Shown: positions 18,955-52,731 of the stretch, piece after piece | Position numbering within the stretch: position 1 is the stretch's first letter | Layout: each line of letters opens with the position of its first letter | Assembly: GCA_021788365.1 (NCBI GenBank) | Contig: JAJYKS010000006.1 | Location: 1 to 62,682, forward strand | Length of the DNA: 62,682 nucleotides | Direction: 5' to 3' | Origin: a bacterium | GTDB taxonomy: Bacteria > Patescibacteriota > Microgenomatia > UBA1400 > UBA12108 | Made by a program: the position numbers and the translations under genes | Notes under the pieces: generated by a model | What the model saw: only the letters and a program-made list of their open reading frames with translations | Told to the model about the DNA's origin: nothing | The model's database searches: none

Positions 18955-19422
18955 ATGTCCATAAAACAAGGGTTTACCCTCATAGAGCTACTGATTGTGA
19001 TGGCAATTATAGCCATATTAGCCTCCGTCAGTTTTGCCAATTTTCAAACAACACGAATTAAGGCCCGCGATGCACAGAGAAAATCAGATCTTGCAACCAT
19101 AGCCAAAAGCCTCGAAGCCTACGCCAACGATTACCAATCGTATCCACTATCAGATAGCTCCAACAAAATTATCTGCCAACCACCGAGTACGACGTGTGGT
19201 TGGGGTTCGCCATTTACCGACGGCAAATCAACCTATGTGGCGTCATTACCTACCGATCCAGGTAGCTACAGCTACGAATACACATCGACAACTGGTAAAA
19301 ACTTTACCCTATATGCCTATCTCGAGAACAGCAACGATCCTAGCATCATAACCATCACACCCACCGTCTCGTGTGGTGCGGTAGATTGTAATTACAAAGT
19401 AACGTCGAGCAACATCAAATGA
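18955..19422 (+). CDS. Type IV pilin/pseudopilin
   Basis: [19 protein letters not shown]; TTGACC-17-CATACT, 7 nt before ATG 18955. Confidence 0.92.
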
Positions 19423-19961
19423 GTTTACGATCTACCATCCGCCATCTACGACCTACAATCTACGACCTACGACCTGGCTTCACCCTCATCGAGCTCCTCA
19501 TCGTCATAGCCATTATCGGCATCCTAGCTAGCCTCATTTTAACGAACCTTACCGCTGTTCGCGAGCGCGCACGTGACGCGCGCAGAAAATCTGACCTCTC
19601 ATCACTACAACAGTCGCTACGTCTGTATTACAACGACGCAAGCCAGTTCCCAACAAGCGACACGAGCTATCGGATTGTTGGGTGCGGGACTATTGCCGCA
19701 CCAAGTACGTGCTCGTGGGGAGGAACATTCTCGACATCTACAAATACGTATATGAATTCGCTTCCCACCGACCCTGCTAGTAGCACAGGAAACACCATAA
19801 GCTATCAGTACTATCGAGTAAATGGTGATAGCTACCTCATAGTCGCCACACTTGAAAATCCTTCCGACGCGGACGCGACATCATCGCAGTCCCGTTGTAG
19901 TACACAATATGCTGCCTTTACCGGCACCAAAACGGCAACCGATTATGTTGTTTGCGAATAA
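19419..19961 (+). CDS. Type IV pilin/pseudopilin with heptamer-repeat leader
   Basis: [19 protein letters not shown]. Confidence 0.92.
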
Positions 19962-19965
19962 GCCT

Positions 19966-20433
19966 ATGACCATCGATGTACGATCTATCATCCACCATCT
20001 ACGATCCGGCCCATGGCCCCGAGCGAAGTCGAGGGGTTTTACCTTAATCGAGCTCCTGGTTGTCATCGCCATTATCGGCATCCTCGCCTCGATCGTCCTC
20101 GCAAGCTTCTCAACCGCCCAAAAACAAGCACGTGACGCTTCTCGTCGTCAAATTATCAGCAATGTACAAACGGCGTTTGAGCAATATTACGCAGAAAAGA
20201 ACCTATACCCAGAAAACGCTACACAAATTAGCGATGCGTTCCAAAACGGTGTGCAGCCCACAGACCCCAAAACGTCGACACCTCTCATCTGGAACGTCTC
20301 CCCAACAGGTGCGGGGTATTGTGTCTGTGCTACACTGGAGTCGGGTACAGGCAACGCCACCAGTCCTGGGGCTAGCTCCACCTGCAGTTGGTCAAATACG
20401 GGCACCTATTATTGTGCTCAGAATAAACAATGA
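19966..20433 (+). CDS. Type IV pilin/pseudopilin with repeat-containing leader
   Basis: [16 protein letters not shown]; start ATG 19966. Confidence 0.9.
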   Translation: MTIDVRSIIHHLRSGPWPRAKSRGFTLIELLVVIAIIGILASIVLASFSTAQKQARDASRRQIISNVQTAFEQYYAEKNLYPENATQISDAFQNGVQPTDPKTSTPLIWNVSPTGAGYCVCATLESGTGNATSPGASSTCSWSNTGTYYCAQNKQ

Positions 20434-20840
20434 TTATGAAAAGGCGTGGTTTTACCCTCATTGAGTTACTAGTCGTTATCTCCATAATTGGCATATTGGT
20501 CGCCGTAGGTGTAGTTAGTTACACACGTGCCATACAGATTTCCCGTGACGCCAAGCGCAAAACGGACCTAGAGCAAATTCGCCAAGCTCTAGAAACATAT
20601 CGTTCGGAGATTGGCGCGTACCCCGCAACCAGCGGCTGGCAGACGGCATTATCGCCAACATATATAACAACGATGCCAACCGATCCCAAAGGGGGATCGT
20701 ACGACTACAAGACTACCAGCACCCCAGCAACGACGTACATCGTGTGTGCTTCGTTAGAGTTGGGGGGGACAACAACACTCCCCGCCTGTTCCGGCCTCTC
20801 ATGTGGGGGAGTCTGTAACTACGACGTTACCAATCCTTAG
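20430..20840 (+). CDS. Type IV pilin/pseudopilin (GspG-like)
   Basis: [22 protein letters not shown]. Confidence 0.92.
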   Translation: MIMKRRGFTLIELLVVISIIGILVAVGVVSYTRAIQISRDAKRKTDLEQIRQALETYRSEIGAYPATSGWQTALSPTYITTMPTDPKGGSYDYKTTSTPATTYIVCASLELGGTTTLPACSGLSCGGVCNYDVTNP

Positions 20841-34222: not shown

Positions 34223-34823
34223 ATGCTCACCGTTGGCGACATGATTCCAGACACAACTCTCGAGATTTACTACAAGGATGCCTTCTCAAAAGTAAACCTT
34301 TCCAACTATCGTGGTAAATGGCTCGTTCTCCTCTTCTATCTATCGTGGTAAATGGCTCGTTCTCCTCTTCTATCCCGCCGATTTCACCTTTGTCTGCCCC
34401 ACTGAACTCGAAGATGCCGCGCACCACTACGCAGCGTTCCAAAAAGAGGGAGCAGAGGTTGTCTCCATCTCAACCGACACCGCCTTTGTCCACAAGGCCT
34501 GGCATGATCACTCAAAGGCTATCAGTACCATCACATACCCAATGGCCGCCGACCCAACCGGCGCACTTTGTCGAGTTTTCGGTACCTATATAGAAGGAGA
34601 GGGCCTCTCTCGCCGGGGCAGTTTCATTATTGATCCCGATGGCAAACTCGTTTCCATAGAAATTCATGACAATAGCATTGGTCGCAATATTGAAGAAATC
34701 TTGCGCAAACTGCAGGCTGCAAAGTTTGTGCGTGAGAGCGGTGGCGCTGTTGTCTGCCCCGCCAACTGGCACCCGGGTGAAAAGACCTTAAAACCCGGCA
34801 TTGACCTCGTCGGGAAGATTTAA
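34223..34823 (+). pseudogene. ahpC: Peroxiredoxin AhpC, frameshifted by a 34-nt tandem duplication
   Basis: Frame 1 from 34223: MLTVGD...YRGKWLVLLFYLSW*; frame 2 continues YRGKWLVLLFYPADFTFVCPTE...VCPANW; 34307-34340 = 34341-34374. Confidence 0.85.
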
Positions 34824-43938: not shown

Positions 43939-44751
43939 TTACCCCATCCACCGCATAAAGACCGCGCCGGTCACAACCAAGAATACAATTGCAGCAAAGC
44001 CCACATATTCCTGTATTGTCCTGGGGAATAAACGCTCCTCGACATCATGCTGGAATATACCTAGGATTACGTACATCGCCATGGACAGCATCACGCTCGC
44101 CATCGGTATATCAATGAGCCAAAAAGACAGCGCCGTTGCTATCTCGGTAATAATGATGGCTCCTACCGTTGCATATCCCGTCTCCCGCTTGATACTACCC
44201 GTGAGACTATACGACCACACACCCTGCAACACTAGAGGAAATGTCGCTAAAAATACAAGTGGGGTAACGATACCAACAGACACGCGTAGCGAAAAAATGA
44301 CGTGGTAGAGAAACGCCGCCGACAACACGGTAAGAAGGAAGCCCACTGCCCGAGCCGCACGCAGCAGTTGAATAGTGCGAATGGAGGCAACGGCAAAAAT
44401 ATTAGCGGTAAGAAGTAGGCCGTACATCGAGATTGCAAAAAGCAGCGTCACAATCCATCGAGTAACCGACTCTGCGGGTAGCAGGAAATAAAAAAGTGCG
44501 ACCGATACGGGATAAAATGTCGGCAAAATCATGTTCGTAAGCCAAGCAGAACCACGAAGCTCAGAGAGGAGACTCCACGCAGTAAGAAAATAAGACGCAA
44601 CGGCAAAACCAATGATCGCGCCGTAGCGTTCTTCAATAGGCAGCCGCTGAATAACAACAAGACCGAGAGAGAGTAATAAAGAAACAAGCACAAACTTCCG
44701 TCGCTTGGTGAGAATAGGTCGTTTCTCAACCCGCCTAGGCCATGTTGGCAT
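43939..44751 (-). CDS. Multi-pass membrane protein of unknown function
   Basis: About 8 TM segments; ATG 44751 after AGGAGG, overlapping the yebC stop. Confidence 0.85.
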   Translation of the reverse strand: MPTWPRRVEKRPILTKRRKFVLVSLLLSLGLVVIQRLPIEERYGAIIGFAVASYFLTAWSLLSELRGSAWLTNMILPTFYPVSVALFYFLLPAESVTRWIVTLLFAISMYGLLLTANIFAVASIRTIQLLRAARAVGFLLTVLSAAFLYHVIFSLRVSVGIVTPLVFLATFPLVLQGVWSYSLTGSIKRETGYATVGAIIITEIATALSFWLIDIPMASVMLSMAMYVILGIFQHDVEERLFPRTIQEYVGFAAIVFLVVTGAVFMRWMG

Positions 44752-45448
44752 AGACCTCCTGCACGTCATCGTAATCTGACAGAGCCTCAAGAAAAGCAAT
44801 GGTCGTGTCTGGATTGCTCGCACTAGCAGTCACCTTAGGACGATATCCCAGACTACCCTCCACACCATCGACACCCGCCGAGGTGAGGTACGAGACAACA
44901 TCGTGCACCCTATCAGGAACGGTATAAACCGTACCTCCGCCTTCTTCGTCGGGGACAACATCGGTCATACCCAGATCAATAAGTGCAAGCTGGATATCTT
45001 CACTCAGCGCACCATTATATGGAACTATACCGCACGCCTCAAATTGGTACATAACGCTCCCCGGCTCTCCCATGCGCCCACCGTGCTTCTCAAAAAGATT
45101 CCTAAGTTCAGACACACTACGGTTGCGACTATCGGTAACAATCGTGGCGACAACCGAAACTCCACCAGGAGCAAATCCCTCAATGACAAGCTCCGCAAGA
45201 TCTGCGCCCGCCCCTTTATCCATCCCACGCTCAATGGCACGTTGAATGTTTTCCTTTGGCATGGAAACAGCTCTAGCTTTATCGACAGCCAGACGCAAAG
45301 AAAAATTCATATCTGGATCACCAACTCCGCCACCTTTTTTGACGGCAATCGCAATGGCATTAGCCATCTTGGTAAACACGCCACTGCGGACTGCGTCGTT
45401 TGCCGCCTTCTTATGCTTTATGGTGCTCCACTTACTGTGCCCCGACAT
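44735..45448 (-). CDS. yebC: YebC/PmpR family protein
   Basis: MSGHSKWSTIKHKK, MPKENI.RAI, DDVQEVY.N. Confidence 0.98.
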   Translation of the reverse strand: MSGHSKWSTIKHKKAANDAVRSGVFTKMANAIAIAVKKGGGVGDPDMNFSLRLAVDKARAVSMPKENIQRAIERGMDKGAGADLAELVIEGFAPGGVSVVATIVTDSRNRSVSELRNLFEKHGGRMGEPGSVMYQFEACGIVPYNGALSEDIQLALIDLGMTDVVPDEEGGGTVYTVPDRVHDVVSYLTSAGVDGVEGSLGYRPKVTASASNPDTTIAFLEALSDYDDVQEVYANMA

Positions 45449-45471: not shown

Positions 45472-45587
45472 ATCCGGAAGTCATATTTACAAAGAAAAAT
45501 ATTGCGCAGGATTGATCCGAGCACAAGATCGCTGCGACACCAGTCGCAGATAGATCGGTTTTTCACTTGGAAATATGACTTCCGGAT
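45472..45587. repeat. Structured dispersed element, copy 1 (terminal inverted repeats, three-way junction)
   Basis: 21-bp TIR (20/21 match); 103-nt core 95/103 identical to 51116-51218. Confidence 0.9.
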
Positions 45588-45640
45588 TTCTGCAATCCCA
45601 TTGACAACTCACCCCTTACTCTCGATAATAATGCGAATAC

Positions 45641-46240
45641 ATGCGCGAACTACAAGAACAAGCCATCCGTGCCGCCTTAGGGGGCAATTGGGAACTCGCC
45701 ATCGAACTAAACGCCGAAATTTTAGCAGAGAATCCCGATGACATCCCCGCTCTCAATCGACTAGCAAGAGCGTATACGGAAATGGGACAAAAAGACGAAG
45801 CTAAGGTTATGTATCAACGGGTTCTTACCCTCGACAAATACAATCCCATTGCCACAAAAAATCTCAAAGTCCTTCCCCACCAAAAAAACGGGACTACACC
45901 TCAGGTGACCACTGATGAAGATTTTATTGAACAACCCGGTCTCACCAAAGCCGTAAGTTTGATAAAAGTCGCGAGCCGTGAAACACTACTCTGCCTGTCC
46001 TGTAAACAAAAGGTGACGTTTGCACCCCGCTCACGCCTAATCTCGGTAACAACCGACGACAAAGTCTACCTTGGCTCCCTCCCAGACGACCTCTCGCTCA
46101 AACTGACTAAATGCATAAAACGAGGTTATGCCTATGCGGCATGTGTAAAAAATACCACTGACAGCGCCATTTCTATTTTTATCCGTGAGACAAAGCGGCC
46201 TCAACGTGCTGGCTACGCGCCTTCATTTATCACTCGCTAA
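45641..46240 (+). CDS. TPR-repeat protein
   Basis: A..GNWELA..N..IL...P.DI.ALNRLARAY; TTGACA-17-GATAAT upstream. Confidence 0.85.
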   Translation: MRELQEQAIRAALGGNWELAIELNAEILAENPDDIPALNRLARAYTEMGQKDEAKVMYQRVLTLDKYNPIATKNLKVLPHQKNGTTPQVTTDEDFIEQPGLTKAVSLIKVASRETLLCLSCKQKVTFAPRSRLISVTTDDKVYLGSLPDDLSLKLTKCIKRGYAYAACVKNTTDSAISIFIRETKRPQRAGYAPSFITR

Positions 46241-47190
46241 AACAAGTCTTGTGCGTCTGTCCCGACTGTAACGACTATTTGCGCCCGATACTGGTCGGTC
46301 GAACCTATTCTAACGTTGGTAAATCCAAACAACGATTTCATAATAACAAGTATCGAGTCGATTTCCCTGGTATGTGACGATATAGTGACGACGGTGCTCG
46401 TCGCGTCGAGAGTACCCGAGCGTACTGCGACAACATCGAGACCTATGTTGGTAAGGAAATCAGCCACATCATTACCCAATCCATTTAGGCCACTGTCGTT
46501 GACAACAGCAACAGTCACCCCCTCGCTCCCCACGCCCCAATCGAACAATCGAGTTCCAACATATTGTTGTAAACGCTCGGGGTGGTACAAATAATCTGCT
46601 CCACGCTGCTCAAAAACCCCTGCACGTACGAGATCATCCACCGTCGCCACTTTCCAGAGATAGCTATAGGCACGGGTAAGAAGAACAGCACTATCTAGTC
46701 TAGAGAGGTTTGTTTTCTTCTGCAAAAATGCATTCCATAAACCACGCTGCAGGTCACTCGCGGTGGTTTCAGCAACACCGGTCACGAGGTAACCCGGTAT
46801 CGGCACTTTCATAAATCCCTGCACTTTACGTCGGGTAAACTCTCCCCCACTCCCTCCACCGTACGAACCCAATGAATAGAGTGCCCCCATCCGATACTCA
46901 CCAACAGATCGAGAACGGATAGACAGATTTGACGGAAACGGAAGCACAAAAACACGACGAAGCACTGGGTCAAACGAAAGAAAGTCCACCTGGCCACCAG
47001 CTCCCACCTCGATCATGTTGAAGCGATGCGGGTTGCCAAACACGAGTGACCGTCGCGCCTCCTGATATACCCATCCAGCAAGACACATAAAAAGGAGTAA
47101 AACTCCGGCAACGAAGCCATAGGTTATACGCGGATCACGCGGGATCTGCACCCGCTCACGCCGCTCACGTCTACCACCCCGTCCCATCAT
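46237..47190 (-). CDS. Membrane-anchored protein with LytR C-terminal domain
   Basis: VAVVNDSG..GLGN.VA..L...G, IVVTVG.D. Confidence 0.8.
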   Translation of the reverse strand: MMGRGGRRERRERVQIPRDPRITYGFVAGVLLLFMCLAGWVYQEARRSLVFGNPHRFNMIEVGAGGQVDFLSFDPVLRRVFVLPFPSNLSIRSRSVGEYRMGALYSLGSYGGGSGGEFTRRKVQGFMKVPIPGYLVTGVAETTASDLQRGLWNAFLQKKTNLSRLDSAVLLTRAYSYLWKVATVDDLVRAGVFEQRGADYLYHPERLQQYVGTRLFDWGVGSEGVTVAVVNDSGLNGLGNDVADFLTNIGLDVVAVRSGTLDATSTVVTISSHTREIDSILVIMKSLFGFTNVRIGSTDQYRAQIVVTVGTDAQDLF

Positions 47191-47237
47191 CCTTCCATGC
47201 TACCACGTAGAGAGCGTATGGCGTACAATGAGTGGCC

Positions 47238-48371
47238 ATGTTGACACTAGACCAATTTCAGTACGATCTACCCACAAAGTGTATTGCCCAAGAACCCGCA
47301 CATCCGAGGGATCATGCCCGACTCATGCTTATACACCGACAAGAGGGTACCATTTCTCACCACCACGTTTATGACTTACCCTCACTGCTACCAAGCGGCT
47401 ACGACATAGTCGCCAACAATACCAAGGTTTTCCCTGCCCGTTTGCGCGGGACAAAAGCGACAGGTGGCCAGGTCGAAATACTCTTACTCGCTCCACTCGG
47501 CCACTCCCGCTACCACTGCCTGACCCGTCCGGGACTCAAAGTCGGTGACGTGGTCCAATTTGCAGCTACGGGAACTGTCCTTGAAAGGAATTCACGGCTG
47601 CAAGCCGAGAAGGGCTCGCCGGCAGACGAAAGGACAGTGCCCCAAGTATTATCCGGATCAATCACCCATCTTGAAAAAGATGGCATGGAACGCACGATCG
47701 CGTTTGACTGCAACGAGGGGGAATTAAAAGCAGCAATAGCCGAAGTCGGCACTATGCCGACACCACCATACATCAAGAAAATGGTAAAGAATCCCAACGA
47801 CTACCAGACTATTTACGCCAAATATGGTTTCTCCGCAGCAGCCCCCACCGCAGGCCTCCATTTCACCCCACAGCTATTGCAGAAACTAAAGCATGCCCAC
47901 CGCTGGGATGAGCTTACCTTAAATGTTGGGCTCGGCACTTTCCTTCCGGTAAAAACAGAGTATGTCACTGAGCACCCCATGCACAGCGAGTCATTTACCA
48001 TTTCTAGCTCTGCTGCTGCCGCCATGAATGCCTCACGCCGATCAGGTAATAGACGGCTAGTTGTAGGTACGACCACGCTCCGTGCCCTGGAATCTGCCGT
48101 CGACGAGTTGGGTAGTATTACACCTGTCAGTAAAAGCACCAAGATCTATATCTACCCACCCTATCGTTTTCGGGCGACCGATGCCTTGATGACAAATTTT
48201 CATCTTCCAGGGAGTACCCTCCTCATGCTCGTCTCTGCGTTCGTGAGCTACCCGCAGACGGATACCCACTTCACAAACTTCCACGATGCGCTGTTGGGGT
48301 ACGCCTACGCCGAAGCCGTGCGCCTGGGCTATCGCTTCTTCTCCTTTGGCGACGCCATGCTCATTCTGTAG
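47238..48371 (+). CDS. queA: S-adenosylmethionine:tRNA ribosyltransferase-isomerase QueA (with ~25-aa insertion)
   Basis: IAQEP, NNTKVFPARL, PPYI, YQTIYA, AAPTAGLHFT, FFSFGDAM. Confidence 0.98.
   Translation: MLTLDQFQYDLPTKCIAQEPAHPRDHARLMLIHRQEGTISHHHVYDLPSLLPSGYDIVANNTKVFPARLRGTKATGGQVEILLLAPLGHSRYHCLTRPGLKVGDVVQFAATGTVLERNSRLQAEKGSPADERTVPQVLSGSITHLEKDGMERTIAFDCNEGELKAAIAEVGTMPTPPYIKKMVKNPNDYQTIYAKYGFSAAAPTAGLHFTPQLLQKLKHAHRWDELTLNVGLGTFLPVKTEYVTEHPMHSESFTISSSAAAAMNASRRSGNRRLVVGTTTLRALESAVDELGSITPVSKSTKIYIYPPYRFRATDALMTNFHLPGSTLLMLVSAFVSYPQTDTHFTNFHDALLGYAYAEAVRLGYRFFSFGDAMLIL
47570..47642. repeat. Palindromic element inserted in frame in queA
   Basis: GGGAACTGTCCTT (47570-82)/AAGGACAGTGCCC (47630-42) 12/13 inverted repeat enclosing CGGCT-gca-AGCCG. 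Confidence 0.8.
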
Positions 48372-49119
48372 GAAAATATTTTTGTACGTGAGCCAAAAGG
48401 TCTTGCCGCGTCTCCCACTTTATTCGCTCATGGGTCACGGGGTGCACGAGCTCGAGTGATTGTGCCGACAGCATGACGCGTGTGGCCCATTTTCTATCTT
48501 CCCTGCTCCGCTTTCTCCCGGCGTACAGGTTATCGCCAACCAAGGGGTGTCCCACGTGCTGCGCATGTACTCGTATCTGGTGAGTCCGCCCCGTCTTTGG
48601 ACGAAACGTAACCAATGAAAATCCACCATACCCTCGGTCATCCACGTGAAGCTCTCGGGGAAACTGCCAGGTCTTCCAGAATTCCTGTACAGTGTACGCC
48701 GTCGTACTCTCCCGACCGTCTTCACGCACGCCGTAGCGCGTACGATTGTGATGCATACGTCCCAACGGGAGCGTTATCTCGCCTTCCGGCGCCTTCCACA
48801 CGCCGTGGGTGAGAGCCAGATAGGTCTTGGTGACTTCCCGCTCCTTAAACTGCCGCAGAAGCTCCACAAACGCTTGTGGCGTCTTGGAGAGTATCATCAC
48901 CCCGCTCGTTTCCTTATCCAGCCTATGCACTAGTCCACTCCGCTCCTGGAAATAGGTACCCTCCTCACTCATAAATCGTAAATCTTGAATCTTGTATCTT
49001 GTATCCATCCAATCCTGCACCGTCTCCGTCTTTACCGTCTCGGCACGGTTCACCACCACCCCGCTCGGCTTGTCTATAACAACAATATCGTCGTCTTCAA
49101 ATAAAATCGGAATCTCCAT
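48361..49119 (-). CDS. RluA/RluD-family pseudouridine synthase
   Basis: VIDKPSG, GLVHRLDKETSG, TGRTHQIRVH, GHPLVGD. Confidence 0.95.
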   Translation of the reverse strand: MEIPILFEDDDIVVIDKPSGVVVNRAETVKTETVQDWMDTRYKIQDLRFMSEEGTYFQERSGLVHRLDKETSGVMILSKTPQAFVELLRQFKEREVTKTYLALTHGVWKAPEGEITLPLGRMHHNRTRYGVREDGRESTTAYTVQEFWKTWQFPRELHVDDRGYGGFSLVTFRPKTGRTHQIRVHAQHVGHPLVGDNLYAGRKRSREDRKWATRVMLSAQSLELVHPVTHERIKWETRQDLLAHVQKYFPTE

Positions 49120-49137
49120 AGTATGTGGAATTGTACC

Positions 49138-49428
49138 TCATATATGGAAAACGAGGCTTGCCAAAGCATACCAGACAACTCCGCCGAAAATAAGGTAATC
49201 GGCGAAGTTATTATAAAAGAGTCCAAAGAAATTCCACGGATCAGCCACCGCTCCCCCTGTAATGCGGCTCCACAAATTTACGGCTCCACCAACAAAAATA
49301 AGCACAAGTGGTCCCCGGCGAGTTTTTTCTTTTACAAAAAGATACAGAACGACAAACTCTGCCAAAACAATTACCGCAAGTGGTACGGGAATACCACCAC
49401 TCACCCCAACATTGAGGATGCCGGTCAT
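49138..49428 (-). CDS. lspA: Minimal lipoprotein signal peptidase II-like protein
   Basis: LNVGVSGG, GGAVNL..R, V.D, N.AD; ATG 49428 overlaps the upstream stop. Confidence 0.6.
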   Translation of the reverse strand: MTGILNVGVSGGIPVPLAVIVLAEFVVLYLFVKEKTRRGPLVLIFVGGAVNLWSRITGGAVADPWNFFGLFYNNFADYLIFGGVVWYALASLVFHI

Positions 49429-49781
49429 TTTGCCTTTTTGGCACAGCTCATGCAAAGCTCCGCCGTGGGGTCCACTCCCAGACGGTCGGTATCGATCATA
49501 GCGCCGCACTTTGTGCACTTACCATAGGTACCATCATCAACTCGTTTCATGGCTGCCCGTATGCGCGTAAGTGCCGCTTCTGTTTCTTTCGACATTGCTT
49601 GGGATTGTTCGTGGCCAAACTGCTCCGTTGCCTCGACGTCATCGCTACGCTGCGAAGTAAAGCGAGACGCGTCACTATACGGATCCTCACCGTCCAAAGC
49701 GCGTTTGCGGTGCAAAAGATCATCCTCTGCTTTCTTGAGGTAGTCCCACACCGACTGTAATATATTCCTTGGATACTGCAT
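49425..49781 (-). CDS. TraR/DksA C4-type zinc-finger protein
   Basis: YGKCTKCG..I...RL...P.AELCMSC. Confidence 0.92.
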   Translation of the reverse strand: MQYPRNILQSVWDYLKKAEDDLLHRKRALDGEDPYSDASRFTSQRSDDVEATEQFGHEQSQAMSKETEAALTRIRAAMKRVDDGTYGKCTKCGAMIDTDRLGVDPTAELCMSCAKKAK

Positions 49782-49796
49782 GCTTCCTCCCTTTCT

Positions 49797-50597
49797 CTAT
49801 GTGTGTTTCCATTGTAACAAACCATTGGTAATGCGCCCACTCCCACCGCGCTGCAAAAGAATCCCCACAATGGCAATAATGATAAGACCAACACCAATAA
49901 TGCTCATCAAGGGAACAGGTCCCAGGCGCACGGTCTGAACTGTAATCCACCCCATAACGCCGTAAAAAAGCCCCGAAAAAGCCACAAATACGAGCGCCGC
50001 AAGTCCATCTTTAGCAACCGTCGACTCTCTCCGATACCACGCATAAAACCGAAAATTTTTACGCACGGCAAAGACGATCACGTAGGCAAGAATTGCCCAC
50101 ACGACGCTCCACACATCTGCCGGAAACCGCCGCACGGCGTCCACCTGAGTAACAATACCCCATCGCCAAGGAATACCAACACTCATGCCTGAAAGAAGTG
50201 CCCCGATAGCCCCAAAGACCAGCACCATTGTAAGTGCAACCGCCGCCCCGTCCCACGTCTTCCGTACTTCCCACCCCTGCTGATGGGAAAAGAAACCAAG
50301 AAACACGGTAGCGCCACCAATCCCTAGTGGATAAGACAGCCCGGGATACGACAGTACACCAATCGCCCGCCACCACACATGCATATCGGCCCAATTGAGA
50401 GCAATATACCCAATGCGGCCGACAACAAAAAATACTAGTAGGGAGAGGAAAAAGGCGTCAAACAACGAGATCTCCTCCCAATGCTCGTCACGACCCAACT
50501 TCCACCAAGTGTACAGTCCAAAAAGCAAACCAAAAAAGAGGCAAACTCCAAATGAATAAATTGTTAGCGGTCCCACATGTAACAAAACTGGTAACAT
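49797..50597 (-). CDS. lgt: Lgt-like membrane protein (signature motifs divergent)
   Basis: MLPVLLHVGPLTIYSFG N-terminus, GLS..G, GIPW..G; gene context with dksA-lspA-rluA. Confidence 0.65.
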   Translation of the reverse strand: MLPVLLHVGPLTIYSFGVCLFFGLLFGLYTWWKLGRDEHWEEISLFDAFFLSLLVFFVVGRIGYIALNWADMHVWWRAIGVLSYPGLSYPLGIGGATVFLGFFSHQQGWEVRKTWDGAAVALTMVLVFGAIGALLSGMSVGIPWRWGIVTQVDAVRRFPADVWSVVWAILAYVIVFAVRKNFRFYAWYRRESTVAKDGLAALVFVAFSGLFYGVMGWITVQTVRLGPVPLMSIIGVGLIIIAIVGILLQRGGSGRITNGLLQWKHT

Positions 50598-50648
50598 AGT
50601 CCCTCCACAGGCTTTACACTATACACTATTCACTTTACACTATTCCCT

Positions 50649-51113
50649 ATGCTTTCCATTTCCCACGCCGCAACCGGCGCTTTTATTGCAGTAAAGATTG
50701 GCAACCCACTCCTCGCGGTCCCGCTCATCCTCGCTTCGCACTACGTTGAAGATGCCGTTCCTCATTGGGACGCTGGTACTGGTTTATCCAAAGGCAAGAA
50801 GACACCAAAGGCAGCCTTCCGCGACGAAATTATAGACATTATCGTAGCCGGCATCATAGTTCTTATTCTGTTCCCCGTTCATATATCGTTAACTTCACCG
50901 CTTACCGCCCTACTCGCTGCCCCAGTCTGGGGAGCATTCTTTGGACTCCTCCCCGATTTTCTCGAAGCTCCCCGTAACTTCCTCAAATACGAGCCTCGCT
51001 GGCTCCGCCCTATAAACAAATTCCATGGCCGATTTCACCACTCGATCCCCAATGTTTGGGCCGGCCTCGCCCCCCAAGTACTCCTCCTCAGTCTCATCTG
51101 GGCGTTTCGGTAG
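50649..51113 (+). CDS. Putative membrane-bound metal-dependent hydrolase (YdjM-like)
   Basis: SHAATG, SHYVED..PHWD, LPDF, H..FHH. Confidence 0.6.
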   Translation: MLSISHAATGAFIAVKIGNPLLAVPLILASHYVEDAVPHWDAGTGLSKGKKTPKAAFRDEIIDIIVAGIIVLILFPVHISLTSPLTALLAAPVWGAFFGLLPDFLEAPRNFLKYEPRWLRPINKFHGRFHHSIPNVWAGLAPQVLLLSLIWAFR

Positions 51114-51226
51114 ACGAAGTCATATTTACAAAGCAAAATATTGCGCAGGATTGTTCCGAGCACAAGATCGCTGCGCGACCACGCGCAGACAGATCGGTTT
51201 TGCACTTGGAAATATGACGAGTCTAC
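51110..51226. repeat. Structured dispersed element, copy 2
   Basis: Same core as 45477-45579; outer stem GTAGAC/GTCTAC replaces ATCCG/CGGAT. Confidence 0.9.
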
Positions 51227-51264
51227 CTAGAGAGAAGCATAAAACTAACGTATAATACCCCTGC

Positions 51265-51349
51265 GCCTAGGTGGCGGAATTGGTATACGCGCAGGTCTCA
51301 AAAACCTGTGGTCTCAACAACCTTGAGGGTCCGAGTCCCTCCCTAGGCA
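51265..51349 (+). tRNA. tRNA-Leu(CAA)
   Basis: Acceptor GCCTAGG/CCTAGGC, D arm GCG..CGC, anticodon stem CAGGT/ACCTG with CAA at 51299-51301, long variable arm, T stem GAGGG/CCCTC; CCA not encoded. Confidence 0.93.
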
Positions 51350-51351
51350 CA

Positions 51352-52665
51352 CTATCCCCTCGCGCGGTCTACGCCATAAAATCGTACGCGATCCCCACGG
51401 AATCGAAGGTCTATGGTGCGCAGAGCGCCATTACGATGTTTGGCTATATTGAGCTTCACATTTTCAAGATCCTCAGCATCCTCGCGATACAAGAACATGA
51501 CAACGTCCGCATCCTGCTCGATGCTACCCGACTCACGGAGGTCCGCCAGTTGTGGCGTACTCCCACTCCCACGGTGTTCGATCGCACGCGACAATTGCGA
51601 CAAAGCCAGAACCGGTATCTTTAGTTCGCGAGCCAAATTCTTCAAACCCTGCGATATCTCTGCCACTTCCTGCACGCGGTTTTCCAAATTGCGACCACGC
51701 ATAAGCTGGAGATAGTCCACTACAATAAGCCCTATCTCATGTTCTGATTTGAGGCGGCGAGCTTTGGTACGCATCTCAAGAACTGAAAGTCCTGGTGTGT
51801 CATCGATGTAAAGCGGTGCCTCGGCGAGAACGCCCATAGCATCCGAGAGCTTGCCAAAGTCTTCACTCGACAATTTTCCGGTTTTGAGACGCCATGCATC
51901 AATGTCTGCCTGTGATACTAGGAGGCGATCCACGAGCTCTTCTTTGCTCATTTCTAGCGCAAAAAATCCAACCCCTACCTTTGACACAGCACTTGCGTAT
52001 TGGGCTATGTTCAGGGCAAACGCTGTTTTCCCCATACCAGGACGCGCGGCGAGGATTATCAAGTTCGAGTCTTGCATCCCCGCGAGACAGTTGTCCAGAT
52101 CAGTAAATCCGGTTGCAACACCCCGCAAAGATCCAGATTTCTTCGACAGCTCATCGAGTCGATCAAAACTCTCCGCAAGTATCGATCGTAAGGGCGTAAA
52201 TCCTTGCTTCATCTGCTGCTGCGAAAGCCCAAACACCTTCTGCTCCGCGCTATCCAAAATGGTGCCAATTTCCGCCCCCTCATCAAACGACAATTCGATC
52301 ATGGCCGAACTATCGGCAATGAGTTTACGCCTGGTGTAATAGTCTCGAATGATCTCACCGTAATGCTTTATGTTTGCGGAACTGGGGACGCCCTCAGCGA
52401 GCGACGAAATGTATGACACGCCGCCGACTTTCTCGAGCAACTTCATTGTTTTTAATTTCTGGGGGAGTGTAACCAAGTCGATCGGCTCGCGACTCTCAAA
52501 AAGCGAGATCATGGCTCGATAGATATCACCATGACGATCCTGGTAAAAAAACTCAGGTAAGAGAAATTCAGATACCTGAACTATTGCGTCCTTATCGATG
52601 AGAATAGATCCAAGTACCGATACTTCTGCCTCATCACTATGCGGGGGGACTTTGTTTCCTGCCAT
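51352..52665 (-). CDS. dnaB: Replicative DNA helicase DnaB
   Basis: PPHS.EAE.SVLG, AARPGMGKT, VDYLQL, SQLSR, DLRESGSIEQDAD. Confidence 0.99.
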   Translation of the reverse strand: MAGNKVPPHSDEAEVSVLGSILIDKDAIVQVSEFLLPEFFYQDRHGDIYRAMISLFESREPIDLVTLPQKLKTMKLLEKVGGVSYISSLAEGVPSSANIKHYGEIIRDYYTRRKLIADSSAMIELSFDEGAEIGTILDSAEQKVFGLSQQQMKQGFTPLRSILAESFDRLDELSKKSGSLRGVATGFTDLDNCLAGMQDSNLIILAARPGMGKTAFALNIAQYASAVSKVGVGFFALEMSKEELVDRLLVSQADIDAWRLKTGKLSSEDFGKLSDAMGVLAEAPLYIDDTPGLSVLEMRTKARRLKSEHEIGLIVVDYLQLMRGRNLENRVQEVAEISQGLKNLARELKIPVLALSQLSRAIEHRGSGSTPQLADLRESGSIEQDADVVMFLYREDAEDLENVKLNIAKHRNGALRTIDLRFRGDRVRFYGVDRARG

Positions 52666-52731
52666 GCTCACATTTTACCGGAAAAACAGCACACCCAAAA
52701 CCGTGTACTATCTACCCGTACTATATACAAA

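Follow-up and report, generated by a model that had tools for sequence, protein, structure and literature searches.

The window analysed here is a stretch of 62,682 nucleotides (NCBI GenBank assembly GCA_021788365.1, contig JAJYKS010000006.1, forward strand) from a bacterium of the Patescibacteriota (Microgenomatia; UBA1400; UBA12108) with a genome of 1.09 Mb. Two intergenic sites on its + strand carry the same hairpin-forming sequence: copy A lies between yebC and a TPR gene, and copy B lies between a conserved open reading frame (ORF; 50649-51113) encoding a membrane protein of 154 aa and tRNA-Leu(CAA), which is followed by dnaB. An initial annotation had described the pair as a two-copy element of about 116 bp whose differences are almost all compensatory, and had proposed that selection acts on its single-stranded structure, either as an unrecognised non-coding RNA family or as an element resembling a REPIN or a miniature inverted-repeat transposable element (MITE). 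The two hairpins of the window are members of an undescribed family of folded, non-coding elements of about 130 nt from minute, uncultured bacteria.

The cores of the two copies (45477-45579 and 51116-51218) are direct repeats of 103 nt with 92% identity. Their alignment reproduces the eight differences that had been counted before, six of which form three compensatory pairs: going from copy A to copy B, 45495 A>C is matched by 45563 T>G, while the two pairs changed by 45537-38 AC>CG are restored by 45543-44 GT>CG. The remaining two changes fall within the hairpin loop of the arm designated P2a (45515 A>T) and within a bulge of the arm designated P3 (45551 T>C). The outer helices, ATCCG/CGGAT in copy A and GTAGAC/GTCTAC in copy B, have no sequence in common and nevertheless pair in both, as had been noted. 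Each copy forms a long closing stem that bears two arms, again in line with the initial annotation, the free energies of the 116-nt sequences being -51.9 kcal/mol for copy A and -46.7 kcal/mol for copy B (z = -9.1 and -6.9, respectively; 0/200 shuffles fold as well). The shared orientation and intergenic position likewise stand, with the addition that the outer stem of copy B takes in the TAG stop codon of ORF 50649-51113. As for the promoter motif said to follow each copy, it is present at both copies of the window (45601-45629, 11/12 matches, after copy A; 51228-51256, 10/12 matches, after copy B), and these motifs are the promoters of the next genes, namely the TPR gene and tRNA-Leu. It does not, however, extend to the family, since the flanks of the family copies show no -10 box at a fixed position and no T-run on either strand. 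No terminator-like site was called at copy A or at copy B.

When the family is considered as a whole, the closing stem P1 comprises 11-17 bp of site-specific sequence, often with a 3x2 internal loop (5' G-N-A, 3' G-A) and a short outer helix. The short helix CAAG/TTTG is also part of the element. Stem P2 (GCAAAAC/GTTTTGC) leads to a three-way junction bearing P2a and P3. P2a consists of the motif C-GCA-G ... C-GA-G around a hairpin with a GGGTA-type loop, CGCAG being found in 75/93 and CGAG in 85/93 of the aligned copies, whereas P3 has the form GGTC-G-[7 bp]-ANYA loop-[7 bp]-ATA-GACC. The 7-bp stem of P3 occurs in several variants (CTGCGAC, CTGAGTC, AATTTTG and CCCCGCC, among others), and the partner arm always matches. 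The coordinates of these features in the window are collected in Table 1.

Table 1. Features of the two element copies of the window and the neighbouring tRNA gene.
Feature	Position	Strand	Remarks
Copy A, whole element, type 1	45472..45587	+	105.9 bits; between divergent yebC (44735-45448, -) and TPR gene (45641-46240, +)
Copy A, P1 5' arm	45472..45487	+	Pairs with 45572-45587; GAA/GA internal loop closed in copy A; from fold and family alignment
Copy A, P2 5' arm GAAAAAT	45494..45500	+	Pairs with 45558-45564; contains the compensated pair 45495:45563
Copy A, P2a arm	45502..45526	+	Near-invariant C-GCA-G ... C-GA-G 3x2 internal loop and terminal loop
Copy A, P3 arm GATC-G-CTGCGAC-ACCA-GTCGCAG-ATA-GATC	45527..45556	+	7-bp stem fully compensated family-wide; loop ANYA; 98% paired
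Copy A, P1 3' arm	45572..45587	+	From fold
Copy B, whole element, type 1	51111..51226	+	98.7 bits; after the stop of ORF 50649-51113, 38 nt before tRNA-Leu(CAA)
Copy B, P2a arm	51141..51165	+	From alignment with copy A and fold
Copy B, P3 arm, stem CTGCGCG/CGCGCAG	51166..51195	+	From alignment with copy A and fold
tRNA-Leu(CAA), neighbour outside the element	51265..51350	+	Synteny with dnaB kept in the family, mostly without the element

The statistical support for this fold comes from 93 copies aligned to the model. Paired cells amount to 92% in these copies as opposed to 64% in shuffles, and 36/39 pairs have undergone changes on both sides. The covariation score reaches 0.633, compared with 0.153 for shuffles and 0.05-0.09 for slid controls. 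The imperfect pairs are informative with regard to the strand: read in the given orientation, 142 G:T pairs face 54 A:C pairs (89 and 15 in P1 alone), which is the reverse of the pattern predicted from the mutation bias of these genomes. Consistently, the forward strand is the more stable of the two in 87/91 copies, with a mean difference of 5.8 kcal/mol (p = 6e-16). Purifying selection preserves the fold and acts on one strand only, that of the orientation given, and the selection on single-stranded structure suggested at the outset is thereby strongly supported.

The description as a two-copy element is correct for the window and falls short for the genome, in which blastn, nhmmer and the covariance model find 14 copies belonging to two subtypes with a common core. 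One of the 14, a natural deletion variant (C2:73251-73349, - strand), has lost the whole P3 hairpin while retaining P1, P2 and P2a, and still folds well (-39.6 kcal/mol). A first covariance model (R1) yielded 162 matches in 24 genomes of the same GTDB family; 22/23 relatives in that family, representing 10 genera, carry the element, with 1-16 copies each. A broader model (R2) detected weaker, longer variants (165-172 nt) in three further families of the order, and a long-variant model (R3) was applied to the closed genome G054 (905,201 bp), which belongs to another family of the order. Altogether, 35 of the 286 genomes of the order carry the element. Searches of Rfam 15 found no matching family: the only match in the window at the gathering score is tRNA-Leu; with the threshold relaxed to E<=10 for the loci around seven copies, nothing was recorded at or near the element except a chance-level hit to snoZ173 (22 bits, gathering score 70, E = 6.1). 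No description of the element was found in literature searches aimed at it.

The family also obeys a strand rule. All 105 copies checked lie on the C-rich strand, that is, 93/93 copies from 16 genomes, where the local skew ranges from 0.05 to 0.39, and 12/12 copies of the closed genome. The genome of the window contributes 14/14 copies on the locally C-rich strand, and every contig with at least two matches is uniform in strand. Gene direction alone does not explain this orientation. Of the 82 copies for which the neighbouring genes were determined, 49 run antisense to the genes on both sides and 11 run in the sense direction, 13 are flanked by convergent genes and 9 by divergent ones. Where the context is antisense or convergent, the distance from the 3' edge of the element to the stop codon of the gene reading towards it is about -7 to +26 nt, the opposite side being 14-800 nt away from the next gene. 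In addition, 24/82 copies, copy B included, are found 3-26 nt after the stop codon of a gene on the same strand. The element does not regulate its neighbouring genes, and no RNA gene or repeat family is known to keep all its copies on one strand regardless of the genes around them.

The strand rule is accompanied by an uneven distribution along the chromosome. The contigs of this genome fall into two skew classes, of which the strong-skew class (|skew| 0.08-0.19) has genes on both strands and holds 14/14 copies, an outcome with a probability of about 2e-6 under an even spread, while the weak-skew class has 70-100% of its genes on one strand, includes the ribosomal-protein operon and holds 0 copies. 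A mixed metagenomic bin was rejected as the cause of these classes, given that single-copy tRNA species are split between both, and that both compartments occur on a single contig in G012 and in the closed genome. In the latter, all 12 copies found with R3 are on the - strand, and the GC skew is positive around almost the whole circle, with one 20-kb window at -0.03. One arc of about 485 kb (+0.19 to +0.34) has genes on both strands and contains dnaA and 11/12 copies, whereas the other, of about 420 kb (+0.03 to +0.13), has about 90% of its genes on the - strand and contains rplB and a single copy. This copy, too, keeps to the C-rich strand, even though the fork, to judge by gene orientation, would run the other way in this arc. 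In six genomes the sign of the skew is the same on both sides of dnaA. tRNA genes are about evenly split by strand (25 on + and 23 on - in the closed genome; 13 and 7 in the strong-skew contigs of the genome of the window), and the orientation of tRNA and ribosomal-protein genes is ambiguous as a proxy for fork direction. The pattern established is that the element always lies on the C-rich strand and clusters in the parts with the strongest disparity. Published work on closed Microgenomates genomes of the order UBA1400 describes a cumulative skew that is monotonic and a G/C disparity over whole strands, with no established cause (PMC7143001).

It may be added, as an observation on composition in its own right, that contigs C2, C14, C7, C10, C15, C16 and C23 of the genome of the window (G000) on the one hand, and C1, C8, C9, C12, C17 and C20 on the other, form two compositional compartments. 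In G000, in contig C7 of G012 and in the closed genome, the third-position skew is about +-0.26 in the strong-skew compartment and almost nil in the other.

The history of the copies combines retention, exchange and gain. When copies are clustered by their flanking genes, the same gene-to-gene site is found occupied in up to 6 genomes from 4 genera. Such shared-site copies are 41-70% identical and keep the full fold, and each is closer to the copies at other sites of its own genome, reaching 98-99% in the core. This indicates concerted evolution of the cores among the copies of one genome, because the cores match own-genome copies better than same-site copies in other genera. In the genome of the window, the identity between type-2 copies ends exactly at the edges of the core, P1 being unrelated between sites; the four type-1 copies are 90-92% alike, with short flanking inverted repeats of a different sequence at each site (ATCCG/CGGAT, GGTAGAC/GTCTACC, AAAAGC/GCTTTT). 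The simplest account is one of long vertical retention, together with conversion of the cores between copies and separate selection for pairing of P1 at each site. Gains of copies also occur, as seen at the two sites of the window: that of copy A, upstream of yebC, has no element in about 21 relatives, and that of copy B is filled in no genome other than this one and G020, which carry different subtypes there. Empty copy B sites consist of the stop codon, about 10 nt, TATAAT and tRNA-Leu. The metagenome collection yielded no near-identical strain that would provide exact empty sites, the best relative having 74% amino-acid identity.

Known systems share some of these features. REP/BIME and REPIN-RAYT sequences are also dispersed intergenic hairpin repeats that occur in tens of copies, usually after genes, and are inherited vertically within a lineage. 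REPs, however, are palindromes of about 20-40 nt with a conserved sequence and depend on a RAYT gene (Y1 HUH), whereas the element measures about 130 nt, joins a variable closing stem to a conserved three-way junction, has an absolute strand orientation and is present in 7-14 copies in genomes without any Y1 transposase. An identity as a REP or REPIN, with a short conserved palindrome at all copies, was rejected, as the closing stem differs at each site and only the inner core is conserved. The same applies to a RAYT or IS200 partner: Y1 (PF01797) occurs in 123/286 genomes of the order in a manner unrelated to the element, being absent from G012 (14 copies), G014, G016, G003 and G023 and present in many element-free families. 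With these results and the variable termini, the earlier idea of a REPIN, or of a substrate of an IS200-type TnpA, was abandoned, and the target duplications sought along with it do not flank the copies. A MITE with terminal inverted repeats was likewise rejected, the outer helices differing between near-identical copies and flanking direct repeats being absent. A riboswitch or 5' leader of yebC, the TPR gene or tRNA-Leu was discarded on account of the sites being empty in most relatives, with 49/82 copies antisense to both neighbours and only 9 divergent, and an intrinsic terminator on account of the lack of T enrichment after the element on either strand and of terminator-like sites at copies A and B.

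Imperfect palindromes of 100-150 nt, such as ERIC, Correia, BOX and bcr1-type elements, resemble the element in size, in their intergenic position and in forming a long imperfect hairpin. Their ends are conserved or marked by target duplications, both orientations occur, and neither a strand rule nor a three-way junction supported by covariation is known for them. Single-strand initiation signals (ssi, sso and the complementary-strand origins of phages G4 and M13) are branched folds of 100-200 nt that are active in a single orientation, on one strand; they fold in the template strand, and the folded strand of the element is the complement of the G/T-rich strand. Such signals are known from plasmids and phages and are not known to be dispersed along a chromosome. 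The attC sites of sedentary chromosomal integrons have in common with the element a conserved structure with variable sequence, a single folding strand and a uniform orientation (PMC5371416). Their folding strand is mostly on the leading-strand template (PMC5371416), and the same would hold for the folded strand of the element if the G-rich strand leads. In contrast to the element, whose copies are 5-60 kb apart between housekeeping genes and whose conserved part is at the tip, attC sites form tight cassette arrays beside intI and carry the R and L boxes at the base of a simple hairpin. An integron attC was rejected, because RYYYAAC/GTTRRRY boxes are missing from the stem base and the copies are scattered among genes such as yebC, dnaB and tRNA-Leu (intI was not searched for). 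IS200/IS605 and the palindrome-associated elements derived from it share with the element a biology of single strands and an orientation strongly biased with respect to replication (PMC5027513). [quoted passage not shown]

The explanation that we favour, with a confidence somewhat short of an even chance, is that the element is a host-retained, strand-specific signal that works as single-stranded DNA or as a nascent strand and is tied to strand asymmetry. It would fold when the C-rich strand becomes single-stranded or during synthesis of the corresponding nascent strand, and a putative protein of DNA replication, repair or recombination would read the conserved junction core. The same strand-specific process would set the orientation of the copies and probably drive the conversion of cores from copy to copy. 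Precedents for strand-oriented structures in single-stranded DNA are provided by attC sites (PMC5371416) and by IS200/IS605 (PMC5027513). Several points weigh against this explanation. The candidate protein reading the element is putative; the link to replication is one that we infer from composition, in view of a skew that keeps its sign at dnaA and is monotonic in the closed genome; with the usual assignment of the G-rich strand as leading, the element would fold in the leading-strand template, the one less exposed in single-stranded form; and the three-way junction, the GNNNA loop and the tandem G-A loops resemble RNA more than they do known DNA sites. A bolder version, which we regard as quite improbable, holds that the element, as a dispersed and structured signal specific to the C-rich strand, is a working part of the whole-chromosome G/C disparity or an adaptation to it. 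It might then mark where synthesis on the long-exposed G/T-rich strand starts or restarts, a structured primer transcript being one conceivable means, or alternatively could act as a polar control of fork direction. If true, this would help to explain how one strand stays asymmetric round the whole circle.

A second reading, possible though on the whole somewhat unlikely, is that the copies encode a structured non-coding RNA of a new class, its sequence being that of the C-rich strand. Such a compact three-way-junction RNA with a variable P1 would be made by read-through or from neighbouring divergent promoters and would act through its core, whether as the binding site of a protein or through some activity of the RNA itself. 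The variable closing stem, the conserved junctions, the GGGTA/GNNNA loop and the two G-N-A/G-A loops make up an RNA-like anatomy and agree with it, as do the tolerance of G:U pairs with purging of A:C pairs, the selection at each locus across genera, and the 24 of 82 copies, copy B among them, which would be co-transcribed with the same-strand gene whose stop codon they follow at 3-26 nt. It is harder to reconcile with a promoter or terminator being absent at any fixed distance, with 49/82 copies being antisense to both neighbours, with the lack of an Rfam match, and with 105/105 copies lying on one strand while the tRNA genes of the same genomes are about evenly split. Termination would account for the position of many copies at gene ends, namely the 49 tandem and 13 convergent contexts in which the edge of the element is -7 to +26 nt from the stop of the gene reading towards it, and some copies do have a T-run on the opposite strand (e.g., C14:71953). 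A terminator or insulator stopping transcription in one direction after genes is nonetheless very improbable: a T-run is not general on either side, the strand that folds better mostly runs opposite to the gene it follows, termination does not call for a conserved three-way junction, and the orientation ignores gene direction.

A further possibility is a selfish, non-autonomous repeat of the REPIN or MITE type which spreads as single-stranded DNA at the fork by means of a non-Y1 enzyme, the fold being kept only for that enzyme. Lineage-specific subfamilies with near-identical cores within one genome speak for such a repeat, and the empty copy A site in about 21 relatives, the copy B site filled only here and in G020 by different subtypes, the intergenic position of all copies and a polarity like that of IS200/IS605 (PMC5027513) point in the same direction; the short inverted repeats around the recent type-1 copies fit an insertion into small palindromes. 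The termini, however, are variable, with neither conserved terminal repeats nor target duplications, and the element does not co-occur with Y1 transposases. Moreover, at many cross-genus sites the site-specific P1 is still paired, unlike in decaying relics. We consider a selfish origin of this kind doubtful, and retain the strand-specific signal in single-stranded DNA as the favoured explanation.

Dispersed hairpin repeats are common in bacteria, and what sets this family apart is a combination of four features, i.e., a three-way-junction fold proved by covariation, the retention of sites across genera, the homogenisation of cores within a genome and the rule of 105/105 copies on the C-rich strand. 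The family is a concrete and searchable marker for replication and strand asymmetry in very small genomes for which a strand disparity has been published. If the element proves to be RNA, it would be a new class of structured RNA from the candidate phyla radiation, where few are known.

A few minor observations concern the genes around the copies and other parts of the window. The yebC homologues (YebC/TACO1) of nine relatives (G002, G007, G017, G015, G004, G012, G014, G016 and G010) match residues 1-138 of the window protein only and have an open frame of about 180 aa, compared with 237 in the window; to judge from the sequence, their C-terminal domain may be shortened or diverged. Close to tRNA-Leu(CAA), G004 and G012 have a decayed tRNA-Leu 5' part (GCCTGGGTGGCG...) and a GC-rich hairpin about 110 nt upstream of the gene. 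The dnaB gene of the window (51352-52671) is uninterrupted, whereas in two relatives (G011:C10:26369-29137 and G005:C24:5705-8473) the DnaB matches are split (residues 3-217 and 214-438) within one frame of 926 aa, which suggests a putative intein in the replicative helicase. Elsewhere in the window, two tandem units of 34 nt with 94% identity (TTCCAACTATCGTGGTAAATGGCTCGTTCTCCTC) are found at 34300-34367, and the region 18970-20500 contains four paralogous type IV pilin N-termini (GFTLIELL... motif), spaced about 400-560 nt apart, as a direct-repeat family.

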